Source: an uncultured Planctomycetales bacterium (GTDB lineage Bacteria > Omnitrophota > Gorgyraeia > Zapsychrales > Fredricksoniimonadaceae). From it: 64,000 bases of DNA. Of this stretch, positions 1 through 14,789 are shown piece by piece. The stretch spans positions 782,290 through 846,289 of the forward strand of contig CAZNDZ010000001.1 in the NCBI GenBank assembly GCA_964572155.1, read 5' to 3'. The translations under genes were made by a program, and so were the position numbers. The notes under the pieces were generated by a model, which searched no databases, was not told the DNA's origin, and saw only the letters and a program-made list of their open reading frames with translations. Within the stretch, counting starts at the first letter, position 1; every line of letters starts with the position of its first letter.

Positions 1-35
1 GAACCGCTGGATCGTCGGGCAACATCTCAACAAAG

Positions 36-341
36 ATGCAAGCACTGCAAGATGCCGTCGCTGAAATCAAGAAGTCTGCGGATGATATAAGCCGTAACAC
101 CAATGATTCGCAATCATCCTTGAAACAAATCATCGATGGTGTCAATCAGCTCTTATCGCGTGAATCTGCGAAGGCAGGGTTAGAAGATTCAATGACGGTC
201 GCGGATCTTTCAGCTCAACAAGCTAAGGACATGGAAAAAGTACATATGAAGTTGGAAGAAATTACCGCGAAAATCAATGCCTTGAAGGAAGCAATGCAGT
301 CATCCGACGTGGTTGTCAAGTCCTGGTTTGAAAGTGACTAA
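36..341 (+). CDS. Hypothetical coiled-coil protein (101 aa from the ATG). Possibly 5'-partial, because the frame stays open to position 3.
   Basis: ORF with ATG at 36. No in-frame stop lies between position 3 and 36, so it may be the C-terminal tail of a gene that begins before the window. Helical, charged sequence with no recognisable family. Sits 8 nt upstream of the next gene. Confidence 0.45.
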   Translation: MQALQDAVAEIKKSADDISRNTNDSQSSLKQIIDGVNQLLSRESAKAGLEDSMTVADLSAQQAKDMEKVHMKLEEITAKINALKEAMQSSDVVVKSWFESD

Positions 342-349
342 TACATATT

Positions 350-1654
350 ATGAAGATTAAAAAACACATCATCTTAGGCGTCATCTTTGCTATGATCATG
401 ATACCGTGTGTCTATGCCGACGTGTATATCAACGTTATGGCGGTTAACGGTTCTGAGATTAAAAAAGAAACGCCGGTAAAGTTTAATTTACCGGGAGATG
501 TAACTGCGGGTGATATATTAGACACCAATGGTTTAACTTTAGATTATAATGCCAACGATGGCAATTATGTTGTTTCAGGCACAGCTACCTTAGATCCCAA
601 AGCATCAAAGACCTACCGCATCCGTATTCGTGATGTATGGAAATTATCACAAGAAGAAACAGATAAAATTAAGAATCAAATCAATAAAGGTTTTGAAGAA
701 ATTGGTAAGCAATTTGATTCAACCCATACGCAAGAATTAAAGGATAGGCTTTTAAAGCGTTTGGATTTGGTTATTGAACAGCAAAATGTAAAGGCAGACA
801 GCATAGAAAAACGCATTGACGCTGCGCGTTCGTATCGCAAAGAGATGCAGCGCATTCAAGATGAGGCATTAGCGGTAGATTACTGGCGTTCACAACCAGA
901 AGAAGTTAAGGCGCAGAAAGCCATCCGTTTAAAAATAGAAGTTGAGAATCCAGCGTCGAGCGCGAATACAAAGGTGAAACAGAAAATCTTTTTGCCGTCC
1001 GAGGTTAAGCCGCAACATGTCTTGGACGCAGCTGGGCTTGAAGTACGCTACGATCAAGCTAAACAACAACCATTTTTGTTCAAAGAAGATGATATTATCC
1101 CAGGTCAGAAAAAGACCTATGTGGTTAGTATTTTAGATATTTGGAATGTTGAAGCAGGGGACATAGAAGGCATGCGCAAGCGTGGGTCCTATGCTTACGA
1201 TTTCTTAAAGAATTCTAAATTTGTTGACACAGCGAAGATGTTGTTCGATAGTGCTAATGCCCATTTAGATGATATAGAAAAATCTCAAGCGGTACCAAAG
1301 GAGATTAAAGAACACATTAGTGCATATCGCGTTAATCAAGAAAGTTTTGAAGCATCACGATCAGACATTGAGAACTTAGAAAAGTTGCTGAATGTGTATC
1401 GTGAAGATCTGGAAAAGAGTAAAGTTAAGAATGTATTGCAAACCATTAGCACCTTTAAAGGTATTGGGGATGTTTCCAAGCAAGTCTTTGAAAAGAAGCC
1501 AACGCCGTCGACAACATGGAATTTTATTGGGTATGTTTTAATATTCGTAGCTGTCATCGCCGTCTTGTATTTCGTTTTCTTAATGATACGTAGCAGCGCT
1601 AAACCCAAAGTGGCTAAAACAGAAGAGAAGCCTCAAGAACAGCCAAAAGCTTAA
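350..1654 (+). CDS. Hypothetical exported protein, tail-anchored in the membrane (434 aa). It has a signal peptide, two ~90-aa internal repeats separated by helical linkers, and a C-terminal TM helix.
   Basis: N-terminal signal peptide MKIKKHIILGVIFAMIMIPCVYA. Repeat 1 (~aa 24-118) and repeat 2 (~aa 190-290) share the pattern LP..V...LD..GL...YD / KTY...I.D.W. C-terminal hydrophobic segment WNFIGYVLIFVAVIAVLYFVFLMI, then a basic tail. No family recognised. Confidence 0.6.
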   Translation: MKIKKHIILGVIFAMIMIPCVYADVYINVMAVNGSEIKKETPVKFNLPGDVTAGDILDTNGLTLDYNANDGNYVVSGTATLDPKASKTYRIRIRDVWKLSQEETDKIKNQINKGFEEIGKQFDSTHTQELKDRLLKRLDLVIEQQNVKADSIEKRIDAARSYRKEMQRIQDEALAVDYWRSQPEEVKAQKAIRLKIEVENPASSANTKVKQKIFLPSEVKPQHVLDAAGLEVRYDQAKQQPFLFKEDDIIPGQKKTYVVSILDIWNVEAGDIEGMRKRGSYAYDFLKNSKFVDTAKMLFDSANAHLDDIEKSQAVPKEIKEHISAYRVNQESFEASRSDIENLEKLLNVYREDLEKSKVKNVLQTISTFKGIGDVSKQVFEKKPTPSTTWNFIGYVLIFVAVIAVLYFVFLMIRSSAKPKVAKTEEKPQEQPKA

Positions 1655-1673
1655 TGCGTTGTTAAGGAGCAAT

Positions 1674-3203
1674 ATGGAATTAAAACCCTTACAGTATACA
1701 GAAGTTGGTGTTGTTAAATCCTTGCGCGGTTGTATTGTTATCGTCGTAGGGTTTAAGAATTGTATCAATGGTCAGAAAATTAATTTTGGTTATGGAACCA
1801 TGGGCATGATCGTTGGTTTCAATGAAACCGAAGCCCAGGTTTTATTAATCAAAGAAGTTGATAAGATAAAGACGGGTGACAAGGCCATTGCGTCGATTGA
1901 ACCTTTTGAAATGCCAGTTGGTGATAAGTTTATTGGACGCATTATCAATGTGTTGGGTGACCCCATGGATGGTTTGGGTCCCATTGAGAGCGATAAGACT
2001 GCACCCATTTTTCCAGAAGCCCCCCCTATCCTTGTTCGACAACCATTAAAGAAAACATTAGAAACAGGCATTAAGGTATTAGACGCGATGATTCCTATTG
2101 GTTTAGGGCAGCGTGAATTGATCTTAGGGGATAAGGCAACGGGAAAAACAACCTTTGTTACCGATACCATATTAAATCAAAAAAATACCGACGTGCTTTG
2201 TATTTATTGCGCTATTGGTAAACCACGTTCTGCATTAGCAAAAATTGTTCAATTATTTAAAGATCATGATTGCTTTAAATACAGCATGATTGTTACCGCA
2301 GGCGCGTCTGTGCCTCCAGGGCAACAATATTTAGCCCCATATGTTGCTTGTTCTTTAGCAGAACACTTTTTGCATCAAGGTAAAAATGTTTTCATCGGTT
2401 TTGATGACTTTACCAAACATGCATGGTGCTACCGTGAAATCTCTTTGCTATTAGGTCGTCCTCCAGGACGCGACTCTTACCCAGGAGACATTTTCTATTT
2501 GCATTCAAAGATGATCGAACGTGCATGTTACATGGATGAAAAACATGGCGGTGGTTCGATCACATTCTTCCCGATCGTCGAGATTCTGGAAGGTGACTTA
2601 ACAGCATTCGTTCCTTCTAATCTTGTTTCGATGACCGATGGACAGATTTTGCTAAGCAGCACACTTTTCGGTGAAGGTCAAAAGCCCGCTTTGGATCTTG
2701 GGTTGTCGGTTTCTCGCGTTGGTTCTAAAGTTCAGTGGCATGCCATTAAGACTTTGTCAGGGCCACTACGTTTGCAATACTTGCAATACCGTGAGTTGTT
2801 GCGTATTTCAAAACTAAAAACTACAGGGCACTCCGACGAAACATTAGAAAAATTAAAGCGTGGTGCTATCTTAACTGAAATTTTGAAACAAGATAAAGAT
2901 AAACCTGTGTCGCAAGAAATTCAGGTCATTATTTTCTTTGCATTTAATAAAAAATTATTAAATGATCTTTTGGTTGAAGAAGTGCGTATCTTCCAAGACG
3001 AAATTTTAGAATATGCTCAAGCTGTGAACGAGAATTTATTGAAGTTGATCCGGGAACGTCGTAAGTTAGACCCAGAGTTGGAAACGGGTATGACAGAACT
3101 TGTTAAAGAGCATGTGAAAGATATTGTAGGTCGTCGTAAGAAAGAACCTACGGATAATATGGATGATTATTTAAATAAGGACAGCAAGGCAGCGGCGGTG
3201 TAG
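1674..3203 (+). CDS. atpA: F-type ATPase alpha-subunit-like protein (divergent)
   Basis: Alpha-type Walker A GDKATGKTT followed by FVTDTILNQ (E. coli: GDRQTGKTA...IINQ). GRIINVLGDPMDGLGPI motif. N-terminal beta-barrel. Real start taken at ATG 1674, which is preceded by AAGGAG; the ORF track starts at a TTG at 1659. Confidence 0.8.
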   Translation: MELKPLQYTEVGVVKSLRGCIVIVVGFKNCINGQKINFGYGTMGMIVGFNETEAQVLLIKEVDKIKTGDKAIASIEPFEMPVGDKFIGRIINVLGDPMDGLGPIESDKTAPIFPEAPPILVRQPLKKTLETGIKVLDAMIPIGLGQRELILGDKATGKTTFVTDTILNQKNTDVLCIYCAIGKPRSALAKIVQLFKDHDCFKYSMIVTAGASVPPGQQYLAPYVACSLAEHFLHQGKNVFIGFDDFTKHAWCYREISLLLGRPPGRDSYPGDIFYLHSKMIERACYMDEKHGGGSITFFPIVEILEGDLTAFVPSNLVSMTDGQILLSSTLFGEGQKPALDLGLSVSRVGSKVQWHAIKTLSGPLRLQYLQYRELLRISKLKTTGHSDETLEKLKRGAILTEILKQDKDKPVSQEIQVIIFFAFNKKLLNDLLVEEVRIFQDEILEYAQAVNENLLKLIRERRKLDPELETGMTELVKEHVKDIVGRRKKEPTDNMDDYLNKDSKAAAV

Positions 3204-3206
3204 GCC

Positions 3207-3512
3207 ATGGCCAAAGTTTATAAAAATAATTTTTGGTGCACTATTCTTAGCCCTAAGAATATTATTTTTGAGAACAATGTTAATAGTTTGTTTATCATTG
3301 GTGACAGAAGTGAATATGAATTGTTAGCTTATCATTATCCATTGGTAGGATTGGTAAAAAAGGGCGATATCATCATTGATTGGAAGCGACGTTTACCTAT
3401 TCGTTCAGGGATCTTAAGATTTTTTGCAAATGAATGTACGATTTTGATTGAAGAGACAGCGGAAACATTTGCGGCTTCTCAAAATAAACAAGAACAAGCC
3501 ATTTCTATTTAG
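3207..3512 (+). CDS. atpC: F-type ATPase epsilon-subunit-like protein. Beta-sandwich only; the C-terminal helical hairpin is missing.
   Basis: 101 aa. The pattern ILSP..IIFE..V.SLF..G..SEY.LL..H.PLVG.VK.GDIII......LPI.SGIL....NE.TILIEETAE matches the epsilon N-terminal domain. Follows atpA after 3 nt. Confidence 0.5.
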   Translation: MAKVYKNNFWCTILSPKNIIFENNVNSLFIIGDRSEYELLAYHYPLVGLVKKGDIIIDWKRRLPIRSGILRFFANECTILIEETAETFAASQNKQEQAISI

Positions 3513-3524
3513 GAAGGAACAGGC

Positions 3525-3746
3525 ATGATAGCCGAAACGATTATTATCATGACAGTCATGTTCATCGCCGTCATGGGGCCATCTGTGGTCATTGCGGTGC
3601 TTGGTTATGCTGTTATAAAAGCGTTGAGCCGTAACCCATCAGCAGCACCAAAAGTTTTCATGGGCATGGCGATCATGTTGGTTTTTGTCGAGGCCATTGC
3701 TGTTGTTGCCATATTAATTGTATTCCAGCTCTTTTCACCTAAGTAG
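3525..3746 (+). CDS. atpE: F-type ATPase c subunit (proteolipid)
   Basis: 73-aa two-helix hairpin. Polar loop RNPSAAP. Conserved carboxylate in helix 2 (LVFVEAIAV). RBS GGAAGGAA upstream. No Na+-binding Q/ES/T signature, so it looks H+-type. Confidence 0.8.
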   Translation: MIAETIIIMTVMFIAVMGPSVVIAVLGYAVIKALSRNPSAAPKVFMGMAIMLVFVEAIAVVAILIVFQLFSPK

Positions 3747-3755
3747 GGATAACAT

Positions 3756-3983
3756 ATGGGTTTTAAATTTTGGCATGAAGCGTTTATCTTTGTATTGGTG
3801 TTTAGCGTCTTAATCATTGTTCCATGTTATTTTATCGCAGCATTTGGAGCCAAAATGATCAATGAGATTGGCAATTTTCCAACGCGTTCCGATGAGATTC
3901 AATCGAAGTCGTTGTGGAAGATCTTAGTGATATTTATTGTGACAGCATTGTTACTGTCGTTATTTTTTCATATTTTCTATTAA
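3756..3983 (+). CDS. Small 2-TM membrane protein of unknown function. Could be an Fo accessory protein analogous to AtpZ/AtpR/AtpQ.
   Basis: 75 aa with two hydrophobic helices. Lies between the c and b genes with 9- and 19-nt gaps. Too short and too hydrophilic to be subunit a. Confidence 0.45.
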   Translation: MGFKFWHEAFIFVLVFSVLIIVPCYFIAAFGAKMINEIGNFPTRSDEIQSKSLWKILVIFIVTALLLSLFFHIFY

Positions 3984-4002
3984 TCAAAGATAGGAGACTC
4001 TT

Positions 4003-4755
4003 ATGAGTTGGAATTTAATCATTCAATTTTTAGTCCTGACGACATTTATATCAGGCGCCATTATTTTTGCGTTATACATGGTCTTGATTAGAACCGTTGA
4101 TGGTGCTAAGCAACGTTTAGACCGTGATGCGGAAGCGGCGCGTAAACGTGAAGCTGAACTTAATCAAAAGATTAAGGAAGCTGATGCCCAGTTGCAACAA
4201 CGCAAAAAAGAATTAGACATCATGGAAAAGAAAATGCGTCAAGAGTTAGAAGAGCAATCAGCAAAACAAAAAGAAGAAATTATTAGCAAAGCGCGTACCG
4301 AAGCTGAAGAAATCATTGTTAAAGCACAGAATGCCCGTGATCAGATTAAGAAAGAATTAGAAAAGAATTATGAAATTAAAACTTTGGATTATTCCGTTAA
4401 GATCTTAGCAGACGTCTTCTCAAATAGTGTTAAGGATACCATTGACCGTCAATTGTTTAATGAATTTATTGAACGTTTAAAGACGGTTGATTTCTCTAGG
4501 CTTGGTCCTGATGTTAAGACAGCAGATATCATTACAGCTAATCCATTGGATCAAGCGGCGATCACGACGGTGTCTAACATATTCAAAGAAAAGTTAGGTC
4601 GTGAGATCAAATTTAATCCAAAGATTGATAAGACAGTTATTCAAGGTGTTGTTTTGCAATTTGAAAGTTTGTTATTAGATGGTAGTTTGCAAAATTCATT
4701 CAAAGAAGCTGCGGGGGCATTACGGCAACAGGTTGAGAAACAATACGCAGCATAA
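4003..4755 (+). CDS. atpF: F-type ATPase b-subunit-like protein with a delta(OSCP)-like C-terminal domain (a b/delta fusion)
   Basis: N-terminal TM helix (LIIQFLVLTTFISGAIIFALYMVLI), then a long charged coiled coil with KREAELNQK... The C-terminal segment ITANPLDQAAITTVSNIFKEKLGREIKFNPKIDKTVIQGVVLQFESLLLDGSLQNSF matches the delta C-terminal consensus (..SA.PL....I...L..K.G..V.....VD.SLIGG..I..GD.V.DGS....L). RBS TAGGAG. Confidence 0.55.
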   Translation: MSWNLIIQFLVLTTFISGAIIFALYMVLIRTVDGAKQRLDRDAEAARKREAELNQKIKEADAQLQQRKKELDIMEKKMRQELEEQSAKQKEEIISKARTEAEEIIVKAQNARDQIKKELEKNYEIKTLDYSVKILADVFSNSVKDTIDRQLFNEFIERLKTVDFSRLGPDVKTADIITANPLDQAAITTVSNIFKEKLGREIKFNPKIDKTVIQGVVLQFESLLLDGSLQNSFKEAAGALRQQVEKQYAA

Positions 4756-4769
4756 TACCTTGAGGCGAC

Positions 4770-5627
4770 ATGGGCAAAGCCAGTAAAGTTAAATATGAAG
4801 TTATGGAAGTCCGTGAGCTCGTCGACCTCGTTCAAGTTTTAAAAGACGTTGCGGATATGAAGTATCACTCGCTGATTGCCCAGCGATCAAAGTTTAATCG
4901 TTTTACAGAATCCTTTACCGATTTCTTTAGTCTCGTCAGTTTCTCAGAAGTAAGACACCCTTTAGTTAATAACAGCACCCCTAAAACAGCCATTTTAGTT
5001 ATCTCATCTGAACGTGGTTTCGTTGGCGATTTAAATACGCGTGTGGTTAATCGTGCTGTTGAAGAATTAGAAAAATTAAATGGTAATGCAGAATTTGTTG
5101 TTATTGGCAAAAAAGGTGTTGGTAAATTAGAGAGCATGGGCTACAAGCTCTTAAAATCATGGGAAGATGTTGAAGACAAAGGTTTTTATGAAATGTCTTT
5201 GGAGATCAAAGACTTTCTAGTTAAAGAAGTTATGGAAGAGCGCATTGGACGTGTGATTGTCGTTTACCCATGGCCTAAAGACTATACCGTGATCAAGCCG
5301 CGTGCCGTTAAATTATTGCCCTGTGAAGATCTTTTGCCGCAGCAACAAGCGAGTGTTGATTTTTTTAAAGAACTGATTGAAGAATCTGATCCTGTCGATA
5401 TGATGGGTTATCTAGCAGATATGTGGTTGTCATCGAAAATATTTGAAATATTTTATGATACAAATTTAGCGGCAGCATCGGCGCAAACCCAGCAATTGGA
5501 TAATAGTTTAGGAAAGATGAAGAAAGAGCGGGAAGTTGTTAAGTTAAAATATCGCAAAGCCCGTCGTGGTGACATTGATAAGAGTTTACGTGAAGTTTTC
5601 TCAGCCAGAATGATGGCGATCAAATAG
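4770..5627 (+). CDS. atpG: F-type ATPase gamma-subunit-like protein
   Basis: 285 aa. TAILVISSERGFVGDLN resembles the gamma motif VGYLVVSTDRGLCGGLN. Helical N and C termini (YRKARRGDIDKSLREVFSA resembles the gamma C terminus). Position between b/delta and beta. Divergent. Confidence 0.55.
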   Translation: MGKASKVKYEVMEVRELVDLVQVLKDVADMKYHSLIAQRSKFNRFTESFTDFFSLVSFSEVRHPLVNNSTPKTAILVISSERGFVGDLNTRVVNRAVEELEKLNGNAEFVVIGKKGVGKLESMGYKLLKSWEDVEDKGFYEMSLEIKDFLVKEVMEERIGRVIVVYPWPKDYTVIKPRAVKLLPCEDLLPQQQASVDFFKELIEESDPVDMMGYLADMWLSSKIFEIFYDTNLAAASAQTQQLDNSLGKMKKEREVVKLKYRKARRGDIDKSLREVFSARMMAIK

Positions 5628-5634
5628 GAGATAG

Positions 5635-7095
<1,461 letters not shown>

Positions 7096-7096
7096 T

Positions 7097-8842
7097 ATGT
7101 TTAAATCCGTTTCCAATAAGATCCTCCAAGATGTCCTTATCAAACAAGGTATCTCAAGCGTTACCGATGTAGCCAGCCATTTTTTTGCCGCACAATCCCA
7201 GCGACGGGATTTGTATGCATATCTCATTGAGAATAATGTTATCCCTGAGACGGTCTTAGCTGGGGCATTGGCCAAAGAATTTCGCGTTGACATCGTTGAT
7301 CTGCGCAAAATTGAAATCCCCGATAGTGTCATCGACCGAGTTCCTGTCAAAATAGCTAGTTTCTATGAATTCATGCCTGTCGCTTTAAATGGCAATGAAT
7401 TAACCATTGCCGTCTATCTTCCAGGTGATTTGCGTATGGAAGATGACATTCGTATTAATCTTGGTTTGTCACCTAAGTTTGTTTTAGCACCTAAGTTGCA
7501 AATTCAAGAAGCGTTAAAAAAATATTATGGTTTTGCCTCCCAAACCATTGAAGGCATTTTAAATAAAGAGCCTCAAAAAATAGCGACTGATCACACGCAA
7601 GCTTGGGTTGAGGATATTGAGAAAAAGAGTGAAGATCCGTCGGTAGCCAAGTTGGTTAATCAGATCATTCTGGAAGCGTATCAAAAAAGAGCTACCGATA
7701 TTCATTTGGAACCGTACCGTGATAAAGTGCGTTTACGTTATCGCATTGATGGTGTTTTGGTTGATGCAAATTTACCTCCTGAGGCGAAACATTTTTTGTT
7801 GCCCATCTTATCGCGCATCAAGATCATGTCGAACTTAAGCATCACTGAGCGTCGCTTGCCGCAAGATGGCAGTACGGTTGTGCGCACCAATGAGCAAGAT
7901 TTGGATTTGCGTATCTCAACTATTCCCACACCTCGGGGGGAGAGTATGGTGATTCGCATCTTGCCAACAAAAAGCATGCGCAATAATTTAGAAAGTTTAG
8001 GGCTTAACGCCTACAATGCAGAAAAGTTTCGTAAATTAATTAGCCAACCCCATGGCATCATCTTTGTTACAGGACCGACGGGAAGTGGTAAGACCACAAC
8101 CTTATACGCATGTTTGCATGAATTAAATCGAGATGCTCATAAGATCATCACGATTGAAGATCCCATTGAATATGAGATGGAAGGTATCACCCAGATTCAG
8201 GTCAACCCTAAGATCAATTTTTCATTTGCGGAAGGTTTGCGTAGCATCTTGCGTCATGACCCTGATATCATCATGGTCGGGGAAGTTCGAGATTTAGAGA
8301 CAGCAGAAATAGCCATTCGGACAGCATTGACTGGTCATTTGGTTTTTTCAACCTTGCACACCAATGATGCTGCCTCAGGCATTACACGGTTGATTGACAT
8401 GGGGCTGGAGCCCTATTTGATTGCCTCTTCTGTTGAAGCATTTGTGGCTCAACGTTTGGTGAGATTGATTTGTCCTCAATGCAAACAGAAAGATGATCAG
8501 GTGCCTAAGGAAATTCGCCAAGAGATTAAAGAATCGTTGCAATTACCGACGGATGACTTCGTGGCATATAAGGGTGTTGGGTGTGATCATTGCAATCGTA
8601 CCGGTTATTTTGGGCGAACGGCAATTTACGAGATTTTTGAAATGAGCCCTGCGGTTAAAGCCATGCTTAATACAAAACCAAAATTAGAACAATTAAAAGC
8701 GTTAGGTTTGCAAAACGGGATGGTGACATTGCGTCAAAATGGTTGGCAAAGTGTTGTCGAAGGTTTGACGACGGTATCAGAAGTCTTGAATGTCACGGGA
8801 AGAAAAGACCCGGTTTCCGATTATGCCCTCGTTCGTCTATAA
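7097..8842 (+). CDS. gspE: Type II secretion / type IV pilus assembly ATPase, GspE/PilB family
   Basis: N-terminal T2SSE_N-like domain. Walker A GPTGSGKTTT. Walker B DPDIIMVGEVRD. His box GHLVFSTLHTND. Tetracysteine CPQC...CDHC. Starts 1 nt after the atpD stop. Confidence 0.85.
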   Translation: MFKSVSNKILQDVLIKQGISSVTDVASHFFAAQSQRRDLYAYLIENNVIPETVLAGALAKEFRVDIVDLRKIEIPDSVIDRVPVKIASFYEFMPVALNGNELTIAVYLPGDLRMEDDIRINLGLSPKFVLAPKLQIQEALKKYYGFASQTIEGILNKEPQKIATDHTQAWVEDIEKKSEDPSVAKLVNQIILEAYQKRATDIHLEPYRDKVRLRYRIDGVLVDANLPPEAKHFLLPILSRIKIMSNLSITERRLPQDGSTVVRTNEQDLDLRISTIPTPRGESMVIRILPTKSMRNNLESLGLNAYNAEKFRKLISQPHGIIFVTGPTGSGKTTTLYACLHELNRDAHKIITIEDPIEYEMEGITQIQVNPKINFSFAEGLRSILRHDPDIIMVGEVRDLETAEIAIRTALTGHLVFSTLHTNDAASGITRLIDMGLEPYLIASSVEAFVAQRLVRLICPQCKQKDDQVPKEIRQEIKESLQLPTDDFVAYKGVGCDHCNRTGYFGRTAIYEIFEMSPAVKAMLNTKPKLEQLKALGLQNGMVTLRQNGWQSVVEGLTTVSEVLNVTGRKDPVSDYALVRL

Positions 8843-10031
8843 AGCCAAGAATACTAGCGCACAAACTGTTACGGGGCATGTTCAAGCCCAGCATCAGGAA
8901 GAAGCGTTGGAATTTATCTACAATCAAGGCCTTGTTCCTGTTTCCATCGAAGAAGAAACCAATCGCGGTGTTTTAGTCAGCCAAATTCAAACAAAGAAAA
9001 TTAAGAGCAAAGAAATCTATTTGTTTACAAAACAATTAGCAGGCTTAGTCAAATCTTCCGTGTCGTTGTTAAAAGCTTTAGAAGTTATTGCGCAACAAAA
9101 TCGTAATCCTTATTTTTCAAAAGTTATCGACGAGATAGCTCAAGGGGTCAGGACTGGTCGTTCATTTTCAAATTGTTTGGCGCAGTATCCGGTGATATTT
9201 TCAAATGTCTATGTGTCTATGATTCGTGTTGGGGAGGAGATGGGGCATTTGCGAGATGTGTTGATTGACTTGGCGCAGTTTTATAAACGCCAAGATGAAT
9301 TATCAAGCAAGGTATCGAGTGCGATTGTTTATCCGCTTGTCATGTTAGGCGTGGGTTCATTAACCGTAATCTTTATTCTGACCTTTGTCTTGCCAAAGAT
9401 AGCTGTGATCTTTGCTGATGCACATGAGCAATTACCAACACCGACGATCATCGTGATGACGATTAGTCAGTATGTGCGTTTATTCTGGATTCCAACATTT
9501 GCAGCAGGAGCGATCCTTTTTGTCGGGTTTAATCGTTGGCGCAAAACAAATATGGGTAAGATTGTCATTGGCGGGTGGTTGTTGCGGTTACCCGTCATAA
9601 AAGATTTGGTTATTAAGATTGATTTCACCCGATTTAGTCGCACCACCTTCTTGTTATTGCAGAGTGGTTTGCCATTATTGCGGGCAATTGAGACAGCCGC
9701 TCAAACAATGTCTAATCCGCAGTTAAGGATGGATATGTTAATGACCGCAGAAGCGTTAAGTGGTGGTGAGAATTTTGGACGATCATTAGCGCGTTGTCAT
9801 CATGTGCCTCCTATTTTTATAGAGACTTTGGCGGTTGCGGAAGAGGGTGGGCACTTAAAAGAAGCCTTTGCGGATATTGCTGATTCTTGTGAAATGGATG
9901 TTTCCGACGCTATTAAAACAATTACAACGTTGCTCGAACCTTTTATGATTCTAGCCGTTGGTGCCGTTGTTGGTTTTATTATCTTTGCAATGCTCTTGCC
10001 TATTTTTTCTATGGATATCATGGCCAGATAA
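8823..10031 (+). CDS. gspF: T2SS/T4P inner-membrane platform protein, GspF/PilC family
   Basis: Two tandem GspF domains with 3 TM segments. N terminus MPSFVYKAKNTSAQTVTG is GspF-like. Start taken at ATG 8823, which overlaps the gspE stop by 20 nt; the ORF track begins at 8790. Confidence 0.8.
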   Translation: MPSFVYKAKNTSAQTVTGHVQAQHQEEALEFIYNQGLVPVSIEEETNRGVLVSQIQTKKIKSKEIYLFTKQLAGLVKSSVSLLKALEVIAQQNRNPYFSKVIDEIAQGVRTGRSFSNCLAQYPVIFSNVYVSMIRVGEEMGHLRDVLIDLAQFYKRQDELSSKVSSAIVYPLVMLGVGSLTVIFILTFVLPKIAVIFADAHEQLPTPTIIVMTISQYVRLFWIPTFAAGAILFVGFNRWRKTNMGKIVIGGWLLRLPVIKDLVIKIDFTRFSRTTFLLLQSGLPLLRAIETAAQTMSNPQLRMDMLMTAEALSGGENFGRSLARCHHVPPIFIETLAVAEEGGHLKEAFADIADSCEMDVSDAIKTITTLLEPFMILAVGAVVGFIIFAMLLPIFSMDIMAR

Positions 10032-10032
10032 A

Positions 10033-10860
10033 ATGCCTAACATGTTTACATGGATGCTGTGTTTTTTATTGTTTCTTAATGTTCCAGCACAAGCTTTTGA
10101 GATCAATTTTGATTTGGAACAATGGAAACAGAAGAAAGGCGACCATTTTGTTGTTTATTATACGCAACAATCACAGGAACAGGATGCAGGAGAAATCCTG
10201 CGACATGCTGAAGAGGATTATGAGCGTATCCTAGATCGTATTGGTGCTAAGAAGGTTGATAATTTCTGGACGTGGGATGATCGTGTAAAGATTGTTTATT
10301 ACCCAGATGCGCAAAGTTTTGTGAAAGCAACTGGGCAACCGTCATGGTCTAAGGGTGTTTCCCTGAGCCATGCATCTAATTTCAAAATGCGTTTGATTGT
10401 TAGCTTTCAAGGTCAAGATGACTTTCTAGGTGCCGTCTTGCCACACGAAATTAGTCATTTGGTGATGCATGATTTTATGCGCAATAAACCCATGCCACGT
10501 TGGTTTGATGAGGGGGTTGCACAATTAGACGAAAGCAATAATAACGAGGAGCATCGCAAACTTTTAGCAAAATTGATTGAAAGCAATCGTGGGATTCCTT
10601 TTGCGATGTTGGATGCGTTTCCTTCCATGATCAGTGAGGATCCCATGAAGGCTGCAATATTTTATGCAGAAAGTCTTTACATTGTTGACTTTTTGATTAA
10701 AACTTATGGTAAGGATAATTTTGCCGAATTATGCCGGTTATTAAGAGATGGTCAAAATTTTGAAGCAGCTTTGGCAAAAGCGTATTATCCGACCATAGAT
10801 TCGTGGCAAACATTAGAAGCAAAGTGGAATCAGTACATGTTGTCTTTTGTACACATTTAA
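10033..10860 (+). CDS. Secreted HExxH zinc-metallopeptidase-like protein (gluzincin-like), embedded in the T2SS operon
   Basis: Start at ATG 10033, 1 nt after the gspF stop. Signal peptide MPNMFTWMLCFLLFLNVPAQA. HEISH motif with a downstream DEG glutamate (LPHEISHLVMHDF...WFDEGVAQ). Not a PilD/GspO-type polytopic prepilin peptidase. Confidence 0.55.
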   Translation: MPNMFTWMLCFLLFLNVPAQAFEINFDLEQWKQKKGDHFVVYYTQQSQEQDAGEILRHAEEDYERILDRIGAKKVDNFWTWDDRVKIVYYPDAQSFVKATGQPSWSKGVSLSHASNFKMRLIVSFQGQDDFLGAVLPHEISHLVMHDFMRNKPMPRWFDEGVAQLDESNNNEEHRKLLAKLIESNRGIPFAMLDAFPSMISEDPMKAAIFYAESLYIVDFLIKTYGKDNFAELCRLLRDGQNFEAALAKAYYPTIDSWQTLEAKWNQYMLSFVHI

Positions 10861-10880
10861 TAGAATAAACAGGGGGCTAT

Positions 10881-11300
10881 ATGAATCTACGTAAATTTAA
10901 CCAAGCATTTACCTTAGTTGAGATCTTGCTAGTGGTTGTGATCATTGGGGCATTGGCTGCTATGATCATCCCACGATTTGCAGGTCGAGGAGAAACAGCC
11001 AAGGTCAAAGTTGCTCGGACTGATATCGAAGCAAATATTTCAACAGCCTTGAAATTATATGAATTAGATAATGGCAGCTTTCCTTCAACGTCACAAGGTT
11101 TAGCGGCCTTGAAAACCCGTCCAAGTGGCAATCCAATTCCTGCAAATTGGAATGGTCCTTACATCGAGAAAGCTCCTCTTGATCCTTGGGGTCATGCATA
11201 TGTTTATGCTTCTCCAGGGGAACATCGTTCTGACTATGACCTTTCTTCAAAGGGAAAGGATGAGGCATCTGACAAGGATGACATCACCAATTGGCAATAA
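10881..11300 (+). CDS. gspG: T2SS major pseudopilin GspG
   Basis: Prepilin leader and N-methylation motif (KFNQAFTLVEILLVVVIIG). GspG-specific C-terminal signature GLAALKTRP...PANWNGPYIEKAPLDPWGHAYVYASPGEHRSDYDLSSKGKD...DDITNWQ. Confidence 0.85.
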   Translation: MNLRKFNQAFTLVEILLVVVIIGALAAMIIPRFAGRGETAKVKVARTDIEANISTALKLYELDNGSFPSTSQGLAALKTRPSGNPIPANWNGPYIEKAPLDPWGHAYVYASPGEHRSDYDLSSKGKDEASDKDDITNWQ

Positions 11301-11682
11301 TTCAAAAGGGTTTACCTTTGTTGAAGTAATGGTGACGTTGGTTGTTCTTTCCTCGGGGATTGTTTTTATCTACAAATCTTTTTTCTTGTGCGCTGATTAT
11401 TTAACCCGCCTATCATTGCGCTTGGATGCGAATCAATTGCTCGATAATAAGATCACAGAGATCAAACGCTATGTTAGCGGTAGTCATGATCTTTCTTTTT
11501 CGCGTTCAGGAATTATCCCCGTGGAAGCGTTTAATCATCGCACGATTCAATTCTTCTATCAGACGGAGTTGTCGCCGATCATTGGTTCTGAGGATTTGTA
11601 TCAGATGAATGTTAGTCTGTCGTGGGAAGAATATGGTCATAAAAAACATTTAAATCGCATGAGCTTGTTGGAGATAGGATGA
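11278..11682 (+). CDS. Minor pseudopilin (GspH/GspI-like)
   Basis: Prepilin motif NNSKGFTFVEVMVTLVVL. Start is the ATG at 11278, overlapping the gspG 3' end by 23 nt in another frame. The ORF-track start at 11125 is spurious. Confidence 0.6.
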   Translation: MTSPIGNNSKGFTFVEVMVTLVVLSSGIVFIYKSFFLCADYLTRLSLRLDANQLLDNKITEIKRYVSGSHDLSFSRSGIIPVEAFNHRTIQFFYQTELSPIIGSEDLYQMNVSLSWEEYGHKKHLNRMSLLEIG

Positions 11683-12269
11683 GATTACGTCGTTCTGGAT
11701 TTACCTTAATGGAAATTTTGTTGGTCTCTGTCCTTATTGCTACGGTTTCGATTGCCATTTTTGGTGTTTTAAATAATGGCATTAAGTTATGGAGTCGTGG
11801 TATGGCGGTTGATAAAAAGGGCGAATTATTTATTGGCCTTGAGAAGATTGCCCAAGATTTTAGAGGGGTGTTGCCTTTTTCATTAATTAAATTTAAAGGC
11901 ATGGAATCGCAAGTTTCATTCGCAACCATTGTACTGACGCCTGCGGATGTTCGCAGCAGTCGCGTAACGGAGGGGATTGTGGATCAGCTTGGTGCTGTTG
12001 AATATCGTTTTGATCCTGCTTTAGGCAAGATGTTCCGACGACAAGCAGATTATGGTCAGGCCATTAAAAAGCAATGGGGTCAAGAACAAGAAATAGCATC
12101 GGGGATAAGTGATGTCCGTTTTGATTATTATATTGACGGGCAGAAAAGTTATGAACGCAAAGCGCATATTGAAACTCACATCCCAAAGGGTGTGATGTTG
12201 ACCATGCGATTTGGTGAACGTGGTCCACAAATGCAGCGTTATTTTGAAATCCCTGTGGGAGGACAGTAA
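11679..12269 (+). CDS. Minor pseudopilin (GspJ-like)
   Basis: Prepilin motif RRSGFTLMEILLVSVLIA. 196 aa. Four-nt ATGA overlap with the preceding gene. Confidence 0.55.
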   Translation: MRLRRSGFTLMEILLVSVLIATVSIAIFGVLNNGIKLWSRGMAVDKKGELFIGLEKIAQDFRGVLPFSLIKFKGMESQVSFATIVLTPADVRSSRVTEGIVDQLGAVEYRFDPALGKMFRRQADYGQAIKKQWGQEQEIASGISDVRFDYYIDGQKSYERKAHIETHIPKGVMLTMRFGERGPQMQRYFEIPVGGQ

Positions 12270-12274
12270 AAGCC

Positions 12275-13297
12275 GTGCGATTTAGAACATTACGACAAAA
12301 TGGTTTTGTTTTGATCTTTGCCTTATGGGTTTTGGGGTTGTTGACTTTTTTGGCCGTGAGCGTCGCTTTAGGTGTGCGCCAAAAAACGTTAGCGGCAGAG
12401 AAACTCGAAGAGCAAAGTCGCATGTATTATTTGCAAGAAGCGGTGCTTAAGCAAGTTAAGGTGTATATTCGCAAACAAATGAATGACCATCAATTTATTT
12501 ATACGGCAGATCTTAAACAACAACTTCATAATAATATAAACTTTTTTGGCCGCATTCCATTCGGAGCGGACAATGCATCTGTTAGTTTTACGTTGTATGA
12601 TCAAGGTCGTTCCATGGAACAGTTTGGTGTTGTTGACGAGGAGAGAAAGGTTAATCTCAATACAACTAATATCTATGTTTTACAGCGTCTAATCGAGCAA
12701 GTATTAGATGTAAAGCCAGAAGAGCGTTTACAGTTAGCTCAAGCCATTTTGGATTGGCGTCAACAAGGACAATCACAAGCTGACGGTTTTTTTAGCGATG
12801 ATTATTATGGGAATTTGAAACATGCATATTTTAAGAAAGATGCAAATTATGAATTGATGGAAGAGTTGCTATTGGTTAAGTGGATGACGCGCACTAAGTA
12901 TGAACGTTTATTGCCGTATGTGACGGTGTATGGTGAAGGTAAGGTGAATATCAATACAGCGTCGGGTGTTGTGTTGTATGCTTTGGGGCTTGATCATGCT
13001 GTCGTTGAAAAGGTTTTAACGGCCCGACGTGGAAAAGATGGGTTGGAGGCAACCGGGGATGATTTATTTTTTACAAAGACATTTGATGTGGCCAGTGATG
13101 TTGGAAGTCGTGTGAAGTTGGAACCGCAAGAAATGCGCGCCATAGATGCGCTTAATTTACAGGGTGTCTTGACGACAAATTCATATTATTTTTATTGTGC
13201 CATGCAGTCGCGTTTGTCACGCTCGGGTTGGTCTCGCCAAGCCCAAGCCATTTACGCGTCTAGGGATAATAAGGTTTTATATTGGAGAGAAAAATAA
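12275..13297 (+). CDS. gspK: Minor pseudopilin GspK-like protein
   Basis: N-terminal NGFVLIFALWVLGLLTFLAVSVAL matches the GspK G.ALL.VLW.L.LL signature. ~340 aa. Sits after the GspH/I/J-like genes as in gsp operons. Confidence 0.6.
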   Translation: MRFRTLRQNGFVLIFALWVLGLLTFLAVSVALGVRQKTLAAEKLEEQSRMYYLQEAVLKQVKVYIRKQMNDHQFIYTADLKQQLHNNINFFGRIPFGADNASVSFTLYDQGRSMEQFGVVDEERKVNLNTTNIYVLQRLIEQVLDVKPEERLQLAQAILDWRQQGQSQADGFFSDDYYGNLKHAYFKKDANYELMEELLLVKWMTRTKYERLLPYVTVYGEGKVNINTASGVVLYALGLDHAVVEKVLTARRGKDGLEATGDDLFFTKTFDVASDVGSRVKLEPQEMRAIDALNLQGVLTTNSYYFYCAMQSRLSRSGWSRQAQAIYASRDNKVLYWREK

Positions 13298-13366
13298 TTA
13301 TTTTTCCATGGTACGGTTATAAAATTTAGTTATAATAAAAACAATTAAATAAATACCAGAGGGCTC

Positions 13367-14788
13367 ATGTTCGGAAATGACAAAAAATTTTTAAGTGTCT
13401 TGATCGCAGATGCAACCATCAAAGTGGCACAGGTTACATCTTCCGGTAACGTAGAAAAAATCGCCCGTGCCACAGCAGCGAGCTCTACGCAGGATGAAGT
13501 TGTTAAGGCGCTTAAACCGCTTCTTGGTGGTTTTGATCGCAAGGCATCGGTTGTCTGTGTTATTTCAACAGCACATGCCACATCGAAGAGCATTGAAGTT
13601 CCATCCAGTGATCCAAAAGAAATAAAATCCATTATTAATTTACAAGCTAGCCGTCATACACCATATTCCCGTGAGGAAGTTATCATTGGGCACGTGAATC
13701 TTGGTAGCATGGCAAATGGTAATACCAAAATCCTACTCGTCATTGCTCATCGCAATGTGATAAAAGAACGTTTAGCTATTTTAGAAAAATGTGGTTTAGT
13801 TGCTGATAAGATCTTGTTTGCTCCTGAAGGCATTGGTCGTTTATATTCTAAGGGATTAAATCTTAAGAATAATGCCAGTGTTGGTGTTATCGATTTCGGT
13901 CTAAATAACGTTAATTTCTGCGTAGTCGGTCGAGGCAGCGTGATTTTTGCACGTTCCATCAATTTAGGCATCAAGAATTTGCTAGAGCCTGAAGGTGCAA
14001 AAGCGGTGGCTGATGAAATTAGCAAAACATTGGTTGCATTTCAAGCAGAAGACACCCAAGCGGTTGAATCTTTTATTGTGACAGGCGATCATAGTGTTAT
14101 CAAAGATTTCTTAACCACGTTAAATGATATTTTAAAAGTTGAAGTTCGTCTAAGTCCATATGTATCGCTTTTAAAGACAAATGCAGTGAAGGGTAAATTA
14201 CAAAAAGATTATGCCGATGACTCATTCTTAGAGGTTGTTGCTTCTGCTGTCACAAGCGCTAAATCAGAAGTTAATTTCATCCCAGATGAAATTGTCATGA
14301 AGCGCACGGTTGAACAACAAAGTGTTGAGGCAAGCAAAGCAGGTGTCGCAGGTGTTGTCATCATGTTGCTTTTAGGTGGCATCTTGATGAGTAAGATTTA
14401 TTTCAAAGATGTTTTCTTGACGAAGAATTTAAAACAGCGTTATGCAGAGCAACATGAAGAAGTTGTAGCGTTGCAAAATAAGATGGCTAAGGTGAGGATC
14501 GTCCGGGAATACATGCGCGATCGTCTGGTAGGTCTTGATGTTTTAAAAGAAATTTATCGTGTCACGCCTAATGACATCTATTTGTCAGCGATTAGTTTAG
14601 AAGAAGATGGCTCGTTGACCTTGTCAGGTATTTCACCATCAATGTCACAAATCTTTACTTATGTTAAGACGCTCGACGATTCACCAATGTTTGTCGATGC
14701 CAAAACAAAATCAACCTCAACAAAAAAAGACGGCGCCAAAGATTTAGCTGTGTTTGAGGTGGCATTAAAATTAAAGGAAGCGAATTAG
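13367..14788 (+). CDS. GspL-like / PilM-PilN fusion protein (cytoplasmic actin-like domain, TM, periplasmic domain)
   Basis: N-terminal actin-fold (PilM/GspL-cyto-like) region. Single TM (AGVAGVVIMLLLGGILMSKIYF) near aa 320. PilN/GspL-periplasmic-like C terminus. Preceded by a 69-nt AT-rich gap. Confidence 0.5.
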   Translation: MFGNDKKFLSVLIADATIKVAQVTSSGNVEKIARATAASSTQDEVVKALKPLLGGFDRKASVVCVISTAHATSKSIEVPSSDPKEIKSIINLQASRHTPYSREEVIIGHVNLGSMANGNTKILLVIAHRNVIKERLAILEKCGLVADKILFAPEGIGRLYSKGLNLKNNASVGVIDFGLNNVNFCVVGRGSVIFARSINLGIKNLLEPEGAKAVADEISKTLVAFQAEDTQAVESFIVTGDHSVIKDFLTTLNDILKVEVRLSPYVSLLKTNAVKGKLQKDYADDSFLEVVASAVTSAKSEVNFIPDEIVMKRTVEQQSVEASKAGVAGVVIMLLLGGILMSKIYFKDVFLTKNLKQRYAEQHEEVVALQNKMAKVRIVREYMRDRLVGLDVLKEIYRVTPNDIYLSAISLEEDGSLTLSGISPSMSQIFTYVKTLDDSPMFVDAKTKSTSTKKDGAKDLAVFEVALKLKEAN

Positions 14789-14789
14789 C

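Follow-up and report, generated by a model that had tools for sequence, protein, structure and literature searches.

Organization of the locus

The window, by which we mean the whole 64-kb stretch of DNA that was analysed, begins within a long reading frame, X, which is followed by gene Y (350-1654, 434 amino acids, a real gene in the list of open reading frames) and by a run of F-type ATPase and type IVa pilus genes. All features described here are on the forward strand. The stop codon of X and the start codon of Y are separated by 8 nt, and 19 nt lie between the stop codon of Y and the ATG of the alpha subunit gene at 1674, a start taken from the gene call on a longer contig, L001. These gaps had been noted in an earlier, sequence-only reading and are confirmed; Y is tightly packed with the ATPase genes. 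An AAGGAG sequence is read directly at 1663-1668, ahead of the alpha ATG. Promoter-like and terminator-like sites between positions 1 and 11500 do not exceed the expectation from shuffled sequence, and none lies in the X-Y or the Y-alpha gap.

The first gene of the ATPase cluster encodes the F1 alpha subunit (1674-3203; Pfam ATP-synt_ab, 5.9e-68; TIGR00962 atpA, 513.7 bits with a cutoff of 484). The name atpA, used for it earlier, stands as far as the subunit is concerned, but the gene belongs to an atypical, 'symbiotic' F-type ATPase (PMC10066038). The next gene product is a short epsilon subunit (3207-3512), the sole match of which is ATP-synt_DE_N at residues 11-83, the N-terminal beta-sandwich domain. 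It is 101 residues long in the window and 75-78 residues long in other lineages, has no match past the N-terminal domain, and is not a full-length epsilon with a C-terminal helical domain. The C-terminal part that is missing here is the domain that inhibits hydrolysis.

The c subunit (3525-3746, Pfam ATP-synt_C) is a hairpin with a membrane carboxylate: it has an RNPSAA loop and a glutamate in its second transmembrane helix (TM2) that is invariant in the orthologue alignment. It is followed by a 75-residue two-helix hairpin (3756-3983) without a Pfam match, which, from an alignment of 41 orthologues, we read as a putative c-like paralogue (c-prime). Its loop, G.YPSK, parallels the RNPSAA loop of c; the copy in the window lacks the TM2 glutamate, which most orthologues keep. 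That this protein is a minimal a subunit or AtpZ was considered and rejected, as Pfam gives no support and the alignment is that of a c-like hairpin. The peripheral stalk is a b-delta fusion (4003-4755) with an OSCP domain at residues 171-236 (2.2e-10); its best NCBIfam match, the F0 subunit B of the alternate F1F0 ATPase (4.6e-12), is below the cutoff. The gamma subunit (4770-5627; Pfam ATP-synt, 1.9e-30) and the F1 beta subunit (5638-7095; Pfam; TIGR01039 atpD, 534.9 bits with a cutoff of 462.85) complete the cluster. The translation of beta has an intact Walker A motif (GGAGCGKT), GERIREGN and the EELSKED loop, and alpha and beta both have the intact nucleotide-binding motifs of a canonical F1Fo enzyme.

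A canonical F1Fo cluster also encodes the a subunit together with the other Fo genes, and this one does not. No gene for an a subunit (Pfam ATP-synt_A) is found between or beside c, the c-like gene and b-delta in more than 130 loci, and none of the six multi-pass membrane reading frames of the window is an ATP-synt_A protein. In the supplement of PMC10066038, some genomes have alpha and beta KEGG orthologues and no a-subunit orthologue. This pattern is weak evidence on the a subunit because divergent subunits also escape KEGG detection.

The pilus genes start at 7097, directly after the end of beta at 7095, and less than 10 kb thus separates the F-type ATPase from the type IV pilus genes. The first of them encodes an assembly ATPase of the PilB/GspE type with an N-terminal MshEN domain (7097-8842; T2SSE, 1.8e-129; MshEN, 1.2e-15), and the second a platform protein of the PilC/GspF type (8790-10031), whose orthologues match Pfam T2SSF and which is syntenic in nearly all loci reaching it. 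The rest of the conserved block (9958-16083, assigned by Pfam) encodes a peptidase-MA-like protein, three pilin-like proteins, a GspK-like protein, a PilM-PilN fusion, a TPR protein and a 186-residue protein without a match. The peptidase-MA-like and the first pilin-like genes are syntenic as well. The translated N-termini of the three pilin-like proteins (10881-12269) contain FT(L/F)(V/M)E.

Structure of the Y protein

Y starts with a signal peptide (residues 1-23, positions 350-418) that has a hydrophobic segment at residues 3-22 and a predicted cleavage site between VYA and D; the small residues at -3 and -1 before D24 are kept in the homologues shown in the alignment. The mature protein is comprised of two similar modules. 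Module 1 (419-886) consists of a beta-sandwich, residues 24-94, and a helical segment, residues 101-179, and has the conserved motifs [IV][YIV]INV.AVNG, LPG, KESKTFRI..D.W and VDYWRS. Module 2 (920-1489), a duplicate of module 1, consists of a beta-sandwich, residues 191-262, and a helical segment, residues 269-380. When residues 43-110 are aligned with residues 211-278, the score is 68, and 500 shuffles give 27 +/- 4.9 (z = 8.4). Both repeats have the pattern LP..V....LD..GL...YD ... KTY..I.D.W. The AlphaFold2 model (mean pLDDT 83), the structure prediction proposed earlier as a check on the repeat unit, has the two beta-sandwich-plus-helix modules with helices at 101-179 and 269-380, and a membrane helix at 386-415.

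By hydropathy, the membrane helix comprises residues 391-413 and is followed by a tail of residues 414-434 and the stop codon (1520-1654). The helix and its flanks are unusually conserved in the homologue alignment: W390 is invariant, and F380, K382, K383, I393, F399, R414 and S415 are conserved to 90% or more. The tail is short, rich in Lys, Glu and Pro and poorly conserved; it is predicted to be cytoplasmic, with RSSAKPK directly after the hydrophobic segment. Hydropathy and the conserved A-x-A-type site identify Y as a type I membrane protein by its predicted signal peptide, stop-transfer anchor and positive residues after the anchor. The cleavable signal peptide, duplicated beta-domains, long helical segments and single C-terminal membrane helix seen in the sequence-only reading are all borne out by hydropathy, the internal alignment and the model. 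Its term 'tail-anchored' is right about the C-terminal membrane helix and loose otherwise, since a tail-anchored protein in the strict sense has no N-terminal signal sequence, and that of Y is kept in the homologues shown.

The Y family is large: 928 cluster representatives are found at E <= 1e-3 and 792 at E <= 1e-10. It is a new, unnamed family without a Pfam or NCBIfam model. Its members have two or more beta-sandwich-plus-helix modules with LP..V....D..G....YD ... D.W, followed by F.(G)K.P...TW, one membrane helix, and a place beside ATPase genes, and Y has all of these. Y has no significant Pfam or NCBIfam match, and the AtpI/AtpZ and T2SS/T4P families are absent at E <= 0.1. A Pfam scan of 42 relatives finds no consistent family, with AtpI/AtpZ and T2SS/T4P absent among the 25 most frequent families listed; one relative, P0171, has a sub-threshold DUF11 match. 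A PDB profile search with Y gives only chance-level matches, and Foldseek with the Y model gives nothing in the PDB at E <= 0.001. The earlier statement that Y is unlike any known ATP synthase subunit, AtpI/AtpZ or T2SS component agrees with these searches. The named relatives are Omnitrophota, except for a few metagenome-assembled genomes that are labelled otherwise. In the distant relatives P0197, P0142, P0146 and P0187, the Y modules and the membrane helix are followed by a cytoplasmic GGDEF domain, the motif of which is intact in P0197 and P0146.

The giant repeat protein upstream of Y

The X frame (36-341) is open back to base 3 of the window. On two longer contigs with an identical Y, L001 and L002, it remains open for at least 788 amino acids upstream, so that X is a C-terminal tail and has no gene of its own: the supposed 101-residue gene is the final stretch, of ~100 residues, of a giant secreted protein. 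The 3-341 segment is the helical tail of this protein, and the gene starts upstream of the window. Of the two possibilities considered from the window alone, that X is a separate uncharacterised gene or the tail of a larger upstream protein, the latter is correct. Extending the sequence upstream, as had been proposed, places X inside a long frame of 13-residue repeats, which rules out the end of a housekeeping gene.

The repeats are exactly 13 residues long, with the pattern G-[IV]-N-W-x-D... Relatives of the X-parent range from 868 to more than 3,330 residues. Orthologous reading frames are open for at least 3,267-3,330 residues, run off the fetched DNA, and contain 231-237 repeats, each of exactly 13 residues. 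The single complete copy, of 868 residues, has a signal peptide and Ig-like domains. In its general layout, the protein starts with a signal peptide and Ig-like domains, continues with tens to hundreds of 13-residue repeats and a Ser/Thr-rich linker, and closes with the helical tail, which ends in ...VVK(S/T)W(F/Y)ES in the family and in VVVKSWFESD at the stop codon here; this end motif is kept in all 30 loci examined. No Pfam or NCBIfam model and no PDB sequence matches X significantly. A word-index search for homologues of the X tail on its own finds two short fragments only, and the distribution of the tail was taken from tblastn on the fetched loci.

The AlphaFold2 model of the complete 868-residue protein has one short helix per repeat, at a pLDDT of ~40 over the repeats, which makes this feature untrustworthy. 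Because the repeat region folds with such low confidence, the word fibre is used on the strength of the repeat architecture. Foldseek finds a generic Ig-like match of the N-terminal domains to 8qox_B, and these domains resemble S-layer and adhesin domains.

An STT3 homologue is encoded near the locus in the window and was not found in the other fetched loci, most of which end short of that region. N-glycosylation of the repeats by this protein was considered and set aside, as N-W-S/T occurs in just 3-62% of the repeats, and is kept as a lead.

Split and fused forms

The X-parent and Y are one continuous chain in other lineages. When mature Y is appended to the C-terminal 260 residues of the X-parent, the joined sequence aligns as one segment to the single-chain proteins P0156 (E 2e-57, 702 columns), P0167 (9e-47) and P0179 (6e-35), and the junction is gapless in the printed P0156 and P0167 alignments. 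The split pair is thus the two-gene form of one membrane-anchored surface protein. In the fused forms, the Y part is the C-terminal anchor of the fibre, a structural role, and to judge by their sequences the natural fusions show that the X-parent and Y would act as one unit. There is no need to invoke a read-through or a frameshift between X and Y in this genome, since Y carries a conserved signal peptide of its own.

Linkage of Y with the ATPase genes

In the 57 loci fetched by Y, alpha comes directly after Y wherever the downstream DNA is usable, and the longer loci continue eps-c-(c-like)-b/delta-gamma-beta-PilB-PilC. Seven loci with other architectures, fused or with GGDEF and with a different gene order, were looked up. 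ATPase subunit genes come after the Y-family gene in six of them, an unrelated gene intervenes in one locus (L064), and PilB/PilC follow where the contig is long enough. The order of the ATPase genes varies, from Y-alpha-eps-c... to Y-eps-c-b/delta-alpha..., and Y is directly beside ATPase genes in most loci. In the reverse direction, retrieval by the c subunit alone, with the best 80 kept, gave a sample of metagenome loci; among those with at least 3.3 kb upstream of c, Y is present in 37 of 37 and the X tail in 36. Both samples are biased to close relatives by the pattern-based retrieval and by the keeping of the best 80, and within them Y and the ATPase are strictly co-inherited. The idea that Y homologues might never be linked to ATPase or secretion genes fails: they are linked to the same ATPase, and to the pilus genes where the sequence reaches.

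Comparison with known systems

An Omnitrophota 'symbiotic' F-type ATPase beside type IVa pilus genes has been published (Seymour et al. 2023, Nat Microbiol, PMC10066038), and the window is a member of this locus type: the phylum is the same, and a non-respiratory F-type ATPase is beside PilB/PilC and pilin genes. Term searches of the main text of that paper turn up neither the two leading genes of the cluster nor the missing a subunit, the c-like paralogue or the fusion and GGDEF variants. The ATPase-pilus locus is therefore already known; for the X-parent and Y genes, no description was found.

A functional precedent is offered by the F1-like X0 ATPases of mycoplasmas, on which a surface protein system depends and which power gliding (PMC12994834, PMC3369863, PMC11864180). 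The MIB-MIP system loses its function in a catalytic beta-subunit mutant. The Type 3 F1-like X0 with MIB-MIP and the Type 2 gliding motor resemble the Omnitrophota cluster in having an atypical F1 without a normal proton channel that is genetically tied to surface proteins, and the Type 3 protein MMCAP2_0577 has a Y-like topology, combining two globular domains outside the cell with a signal peptide and C-terminal membrane helices. At the sequence level, no similarity between the Type 2/3 systems and the Omnitrophota cluster was detected. The window alpha and beta score 303, 374, 402 and 424 bits with the mycoplasma models MSC_0619 alpha, MSC_0618 beta, MMOB1660 and MMOB1670, all below the NCBIfam cutoffs of 520, 570, 600 and 850. 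The mycoplasma clusters are described (PMC3369863, PMC12994834) as consisting of seven genes, four of them alpha-, beta-, gamma- and epsilon-like and three without known homologues, and as marked by a novel membrane sector without recognisable Fo-type subunits. The Omnitrophota cluster, unlike these, keeps c and b-delta and has no 12-helix membrane protein.

The N-ATPase (alternate F1Fo, atpDCQRBEFAG) similarly has a single long b-type stalk subunit, no separate delta gene and small extra membrane proteins encoded in the operon. Its operons differ in having an a subunit and AtpQ/AtpR and in their gene order, and all alternate-ATPase models score below their cutoffs in the window. The giant Omnitrophota proteins ('Archaeovorins' and dockerin-type; West-Roberts et al. 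2023, 10.1101/2023.11.21.568195) are from the same phylum, very long, repeat-rich and predicted to be extracellular; they are beside T2SS/T4P-like genes and also break assemblies. They contain SecA-like, HEAT, TPR, glycosyltransferase or dockerin/TSP3 domains and many membrane helices, whereas the X-parent has a simple 13-residue array and a separate or fused Y anchor, and is next to an ATPase.

A large surface protein with an anchored partner is also found in the two-component S-layer of Sulfolobus (PDB 8qox), where SlaB holds the large surface protein SlaA. In SlaB, beta-sandwich domains are combined with a coiled coil and a C-terminal membrane helix. It is an analogy for how X and Y might work; SlaA/SlaB has no ATPase linkage, and the sole computed link is the Ig-like Foldseek match of the fibre, with none for Y.

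Possible function of the X-parent and Y

On balance, we favour the explanation that the X-parent and Y probably form a two-chain, membrane-anchored surface fibre of the 'symbiotic' F-type ATPase/type IVa pilus locus of Omnitrophota. The upstream gene would give a secreted giant repeat protein ending in the helical tail X, and Y would be the anchor or adaptor of the fibre, with its N-terminal beta-sandwich exposed after cleavage of the signal peptide and its two modules leading to the one conserved membrane helix. Since single-chain relatives continue the tail into the first beta-sandwich of Y, the tail most likely docks there. The cluster would supply a rotor (gamma, short epsilon, c and c-like), a stalk (b-delta) and catalytic alpha and beta. 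Because Y is fixed at the head of an ATPase cluster without an a subunit, the pair may be the outward-facing partner of an ATP-hydrolysing motor and the pilus machine, and its likely role would be attachment to host cells or movement on them. The docking, oligomeric state, ATPase contact and function of the pair are what we infer. It counts against a contact with the ATPase or the pilus machine that Y ends in a short, poorly conserved cytoplasmic tail; any contact would be within or outside the membrane. An inner-membrane-anchored protein of thousands of residues would somehow have to reach the surface of cells thought to be bounded by two membranes, which counts against a surface fibre. The conserved adjacency of Y and the ATPase could also be due to co-regulation inside one attachment locus, an a subunit may be encoded elsewhere in the genome, and the ion-binding glutamate kept by c is more in keeping with ion translocation than with a purely mechanical role; all three points count against the explanation.

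It is possible, though doubtful, that the repeat protein and Y are simply a surface coat, S-layer-like or an adhesin, exported or displayed with the help of the T2SS/T4P machinery next door, and that the ATPase is a separate entity with no mechanical or physical link to them. Giant Omnitrophota proteins are generally beside T2SS-like loci (10.1101/2023.11.21.568195; 10.64898/2026.06.07.730766), secretin genes are near in L059 and L064, the Ig-like domains resemble those of S-layers and adhesins, and the SlaB-like composition of the anchor would fit a coat by analogy. Such a coat, however, would leave the ATPase itself without a role, and Y is directly beside the ATPase genes, not the pilus genes, in most loci and across differing gene orders, a linkage that held both ways within the samples. 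The same linkage, with the missing a subunit and the conserved membrane helix of Y, could be taken to mean that Y is a stator, an a-subunit substitute or an assembly factor, as Y always adjoins ATPase genes, and that the giant gene is functionally unrelated. We consider this highly improbable: natural fusions and the conservation of the tail motif link Y with the giant protein, Y has only one membrane helix and no membrane-embedded arginine conserved across the wider family, and ~90% of its mass is outside the cytoplasm.

Y might also be mainly a transmembrane sensor or regulator of load or contact on the fibre, signalling via its membrane helix to pilus extension or to the ATPase, by c-di-GMP where GGDEF is present and by protein contacts otherwise. 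P0197, P0142, P0146 and P0187 join GGDEF to the Y modules and membrane helix, which suggests that the module can pass information across the membrane. In the GGDEF lineages, PilB carries MshEN and PilZ (MshEN in the window), and the signal would probably go to c-di-GMP-binding PilB. As a main function this is quite unlikely, since the window Y and most relatives, with just ~20 poorly conserved cytoplasmic residues, have no output domain, and the role of Y in the fused forms is structural. A sensor is, moreover, compatible with the anchored fibre and not exclusive of it.

The anchored-fibre explanation has a stronger version, which we regard as unlikely, in which the fibre and Y are the mechanical output of a rotary F-type ATPase without an ion channel. 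ATP hydrolysis would turn the gamma/epsilon/c-ring rotor, the membrane helix and helical stalks of Y would couple the motion, or the reaction force, to the fibre, and the fibre would act in concert with the type IVa pilus next to it. If true, this version would mean that a two-membrane bacterium has an ATP-driven machine for attachment or motility that had gone unrecognised, analogous to the mycoplasma gliding legs, yet independent of them.

Omnitrophota are widespread, uncultured, ultra-small bacteria, presumed to live on other cells. The atypical ATPase that they encode beside pilus genes has been proposed to be an attachment or motility device, for which no outward-facing partner has been named so far. 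The giant repeat protein and its anchor Y are a candidate for this partner, and the pair gives targets for finding out how an F-type ATPase without an a subunit in its cluster is used. The giant repeat gene also accounts for the breaks that many assemblies have just upstream of the locus. Finally, the pair offers a parallel to the F1-like X0 systems of mycoplasmas, in which a surface protein system has recently been shown to depend on an atypical ATPase.

Gene order and the reading frame of X

X (36-341) and Y (350-1654) appear in the ORF table on the forward strand, and neither has a significant Pfam or NCBIfam match. Nine genes on the same strand come after Y without real gaps: alpha (ATG at 1674, end at 3203), epsilon (101 aa, 3207-3512), c (3525-3746), a two-helix protein of 75 aa (3756-3983), a b-delta fusion (4003-4755), gamma (4770-5627), beta (5638-7095), PilB/GspE (7097-8842) and PilC/GspF (8790-10031). 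Pilin-like genes follow PilC/GspF. The identities of the ATPase and pilus genes are backed by Pfam and NCBIfam. X is separated from Y by 8 nt and Y from alpha by 19 nt, and AAGGAG precedes the alpha ATG. Consensus scans of 1-11500 for promoters and terminators gave results at or below those of shuffled sequence, with no site in either of the two gaps. The sequence-only reading considered co-transcription with atpA almost certain because of the short gaps; the gaps stand, but the claim is better worded as likely for the upstream protein, Y and alpha. The pilus block is closed by a 1,130-aa ORF (16116-19508) without a Pfam match, partial homologues of which sit between PilB and PilC in two related loci, L076 and L079. 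Another ORF, of 1,719 aa (38454-43613), contains one glucosamine-6-phosphate isomerase-like domain, the remainder being unannotated, and could belong with the long multi-domain proteins that have been described from the phylum Omnitrophota.

The same reading had treated X as a gene, while allowing that it might be the tail of a larger upstream protein, and had proposed extending the contig as a check. The second possibility is the correct one. The X frame has no stop back to the first bases of the window, and on longer contigs, obtained by exact-sequence look-up of Y, no stop is met over at least 788 residues, the frame running off the end of the contig. X is the tail of a giant repeat protein, the X-parent, and is no gene of its own; what had been said of Y as a real gene is borne out, and with X re-assigned the sequence-only interpretation is right for the most part.

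The X-parent

On the longer contigs, the X-parent consists of a 13-residue repeat array, a Ser/Thr-rich stretch and the helical tail noticed in the sequence-only reading, in this order. In most of 54 genome loci retrieved through Y, the orthologous ORF extends as far as the fetched DNA does. Five loci have an ORF open for at least 3,267-3,330 residues, with 231-237 repeats at exact 13-residue spacing. The repeat consensus is G-[IV]-N-W-x-D-[FIL]-x-x-[LM]-[ST]-x-x, the N and W being invariant among matched units. Adjacent units are only ~45-57% identical, so the array must be old and did not arise by recent expansion. Many contigs stop within the repeat gene (upstream ends of L004-L057), probably because the repeats break short-read assemblies, and the length of the array is therefore systematically underestimated.

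The one complete copy, P0270 (868 aa, locus L009), is comprised of a signal peptide, two Ig-like beta domains, ~31 repeats and the tail. The Ig-like domains are modelled confidently (pLDDT ~85), and their Foldseek matches are Ig domains of S-layer proteins, titin and adhesins. The repeat region is modelled at a pLDDT of only ~40, and its fold prediction is unreliable. In 3-62% of units, the share varying with the lineage (repeat ORFs of L001-L057), the N-W of the repeat is followed by S or T and so forms an N-x-S/T sequon. Some 18 kb downstream of Y there is a gene for an oligosaccharyltransferase of the STT3 family (19503-21971, reverse strand). N-glycosylation of the repeats is a possible lead from these two observations.

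Y and its family

The N-terminus of Y is hydrophobic, and the small-x-small site preceding D24 is conserved. Y further has a module of a beta-sandwich plus helices present in two copies (internal alignment z = 8.4 versus shuffles), and a C-terminal part with a single hydrophobic helix followed by basic residues. The mean pLDDT of its AlphaFold2 model is 83. Y is predicted to be a type I membrane protein, most of it extracytoplasmic and ~20 residues cytoplasmic. A word-index search with Y found 133 relatives, among which 'hypothetical protein' from Omnitrophota is the sole name given, and a profile search of 1.84 billion cluster representatives gave 928 matches at E <= 1e-3 and 792 at E <= 1e-10. 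Y represents a new, unnamed, large family of duplicated-module type I membrane proteins. Many loci of the family are labelled 'uncultured Planctomycetales', and a few come from MAGs with labels other than Omnitrophota, among them L064 (GCA_016213065.1, Deltaproteobacteria) and L030 (Elusimicrobia); such labels may stem from mislabelling, mis-binning or a true spread beyond Omnitrophota. On a 1.29-Mb Omnitrophota contig (L053, 10001-12770), Y and alpha are broken into several frames; assembly frameshift errors are suspected rather than pseudogenes.

In some members of the family the membrane helix is followed by a cytoplasmic GGDEF domain, which is intact (L063, 1130-3208; L065, 10001-11872; L062, 313-2268). 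In L065 and in L061, a locus with the X-parent and Y fused, PilB bears both MshEN and PilZ. These domain combinations suggest that in such lineages c-di-GMP signalling may run from the Y module to the pilus ATPase.

Split and fused forms

The profile matches include proteins of 1,167 to 3,399 residues with the Y modules at their C-terminus. These single-chain relatives have a signal peptide, Ig-like or repeat regions (related 13-residue repeats, T-D-T-I-x-W, in P0202) and the same helical tail as the X-parent, in which '...V[IV]KTW[FL]E[SP]G' is continued without a break by 'SV.LK..V.NPS...', where the Y module has its first strand. A query made of the 260 C-terminal residues of the upstream protein in the window's own genome, joined to mature Y without its signal peptide, aligned in one segment with each of three such proteins: P0156 (E 2e-57, 702 columns), P0167 (E 9e-47) and P0179 (E 6e-35). 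The junction is free of gaps in the printed P0156 and P0167 alignments, where VVVKSWFESD/DVYINVMAVNGSE stands over DAVIKTWLEPG SVKLKMIVINPSE. The tail end, ...LEEI.AK..A..E.....[DE][VI]V[VI]K[ST][WY][FY]ES[DE] and stop, is kept in all 30 loci examined, including lineages where Y is only 30-40% identical. By these alignments and the conserved tail end, the X-parent and Y are the split form of one membrane-anchored surface protein and constitute one functional unit, split or fused. The split coincides exactly with the point at which the signal peptide of Y is cleaved.

Linkage to the ATPase and the pilus

In all 57 loci fetched by Y with usable downstream DNA, alpha comes directly after Y. The longer ones continue with epsilon, c, the c-like gene, b-delta, gamma, beta, PilB and PilC, usually followed by a peptidase-MA-like gene and a pilin-like gene. 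Conversely, among 80 metagenome loci retrieved with the c-subunit alignment alone, Y is found in all 37 with at least 3.3 kb upstream of c, and the X tail in 36 of them. The co-occurrence check proposed for Y homologues thus came out in favour of linkage, with zero exceptions in either sample, both being skewed to closer relatives. Two loci that gave no tblastn match for the tail were inspected manually: in L022 the repeat ORF stops 2 nt before Y, and in L032 Ns mask the stretch just upstream of Y.

Divergent members of the family keep the linkage though the gene order differs. The fused P0156 (1,851 aa) is preceded by genes for a secretin, a TPR protein and two FGE-sulfatase-domain proteins, and followed by epsilon, c, b-delta, two alpha-like genes, gamma, beta, PilB and PilC. 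The fused P0257 (3,399 aa) is followed by ATPase genes and then PilB and PilC; the GGDEF proteins P0197 and P0142 by ATPase genes as far as the contig end; and P0146, also with GGDEF, by ATPase genes, PilB and PilC, with a 1,924-aa surface protein before it. After P0202 comes an unrelated gene, and beyond it ATPase-like genes with a secretin gene interspersed. The contigs of P0167 and P0179 are too short to reach downstream genes. The X-parent/Y unit is linked to an F-type ATPase cluster lacking the a subunit and to a type IVa pilus locus.

Clusters of the fused or GGDEF lineages have two alpha-like genes (L059, 15707-18635; L065, 11883-14876; L064, 5312-6739 and 12141-13457), whereas the window has one. 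In the same lineages, the gene of the large surface protein is immediately preceded by one or two genes with an FGE-sulfatase domain (L059, 5554-8583; L060, 253-1755; L065, 491-3969), and in L059 the secretin and TPR genes lie further upstream still.

The ATPase

Alpha and beta score above the curated cutoffs of canonical atpA and atpD and below those of the mycoplasma Type 2/3 and alternate-ATPase models, and the catalytic motifs are intact in the translations. The sole match in epsilon is the N-terminal beta-sandwich domain; epsilon therefore lacks the C-terminal helices, the part of the subunit that inhibits hydrolysis. Conservation of the c subunit is extremely high, and the TM2 glutamate is retained. 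The 75-aa protein aligns as a c-like hairpin, with G.YPSK in the loop versus RNPSAA of c; most orthologues have the TM2 glutamate, and the window copy has Phe at that position. By this alignment it looks like a diverged c-subunit paralogue. It is apparently missing from the fused-form lineage of L059. An a subunit was found in none of more than 130 ATPase clusters (1674-7095 of the window and related loci), and none of the six ORFs for multi-pass membrane proteins in the 64-kb window is ATP-synt_A.

Relation to known systems

The ATPase-pilus locus itself is already known; term searches of the main text of Seymour et al. (PMC10066038) gave no mention of the two upstream genes. Other kinds of giant Omnitrophota proteins have been tied to T2SS-like loci and not to the ATPase (West-Roberts et al. 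2023, 10.1101/2023.11.21.568195; a 2026 preprint, 10.64898/2026.06.07.730766). The fibre/anchor pair and its obligatory ATPase linkage appear to be new. In mycoplasmas, Type 2 ATPases power gliding (PMC11864180), and Type 3 'F1-like X0' ATPases occur together with the MIB-MIP system of the cell surface, which needs them to function (PMC12994834). In one non-F1 component of the Type 3 enzyme, two extracellular globular domains stand between a signal peptide and membrane helices at the C-terminus, which is also the topology of Y.

Since the split falls at the Y cleavage site in an otherwise continuous chain, the free tail of the X-parent would dock on the first beta-sandwich of Y. Y would hold the repeat protein in the inner membrane, and its conserved membrane helix may touch the membrane sector of the ATPase or pass signals. 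The overall system is of a known kind, an atypical F1-type ATPase that has a surface protein system dedicated to it; the X-parent and Y would be what faces outward in an apparatus for attachment or motility driven by ATP.
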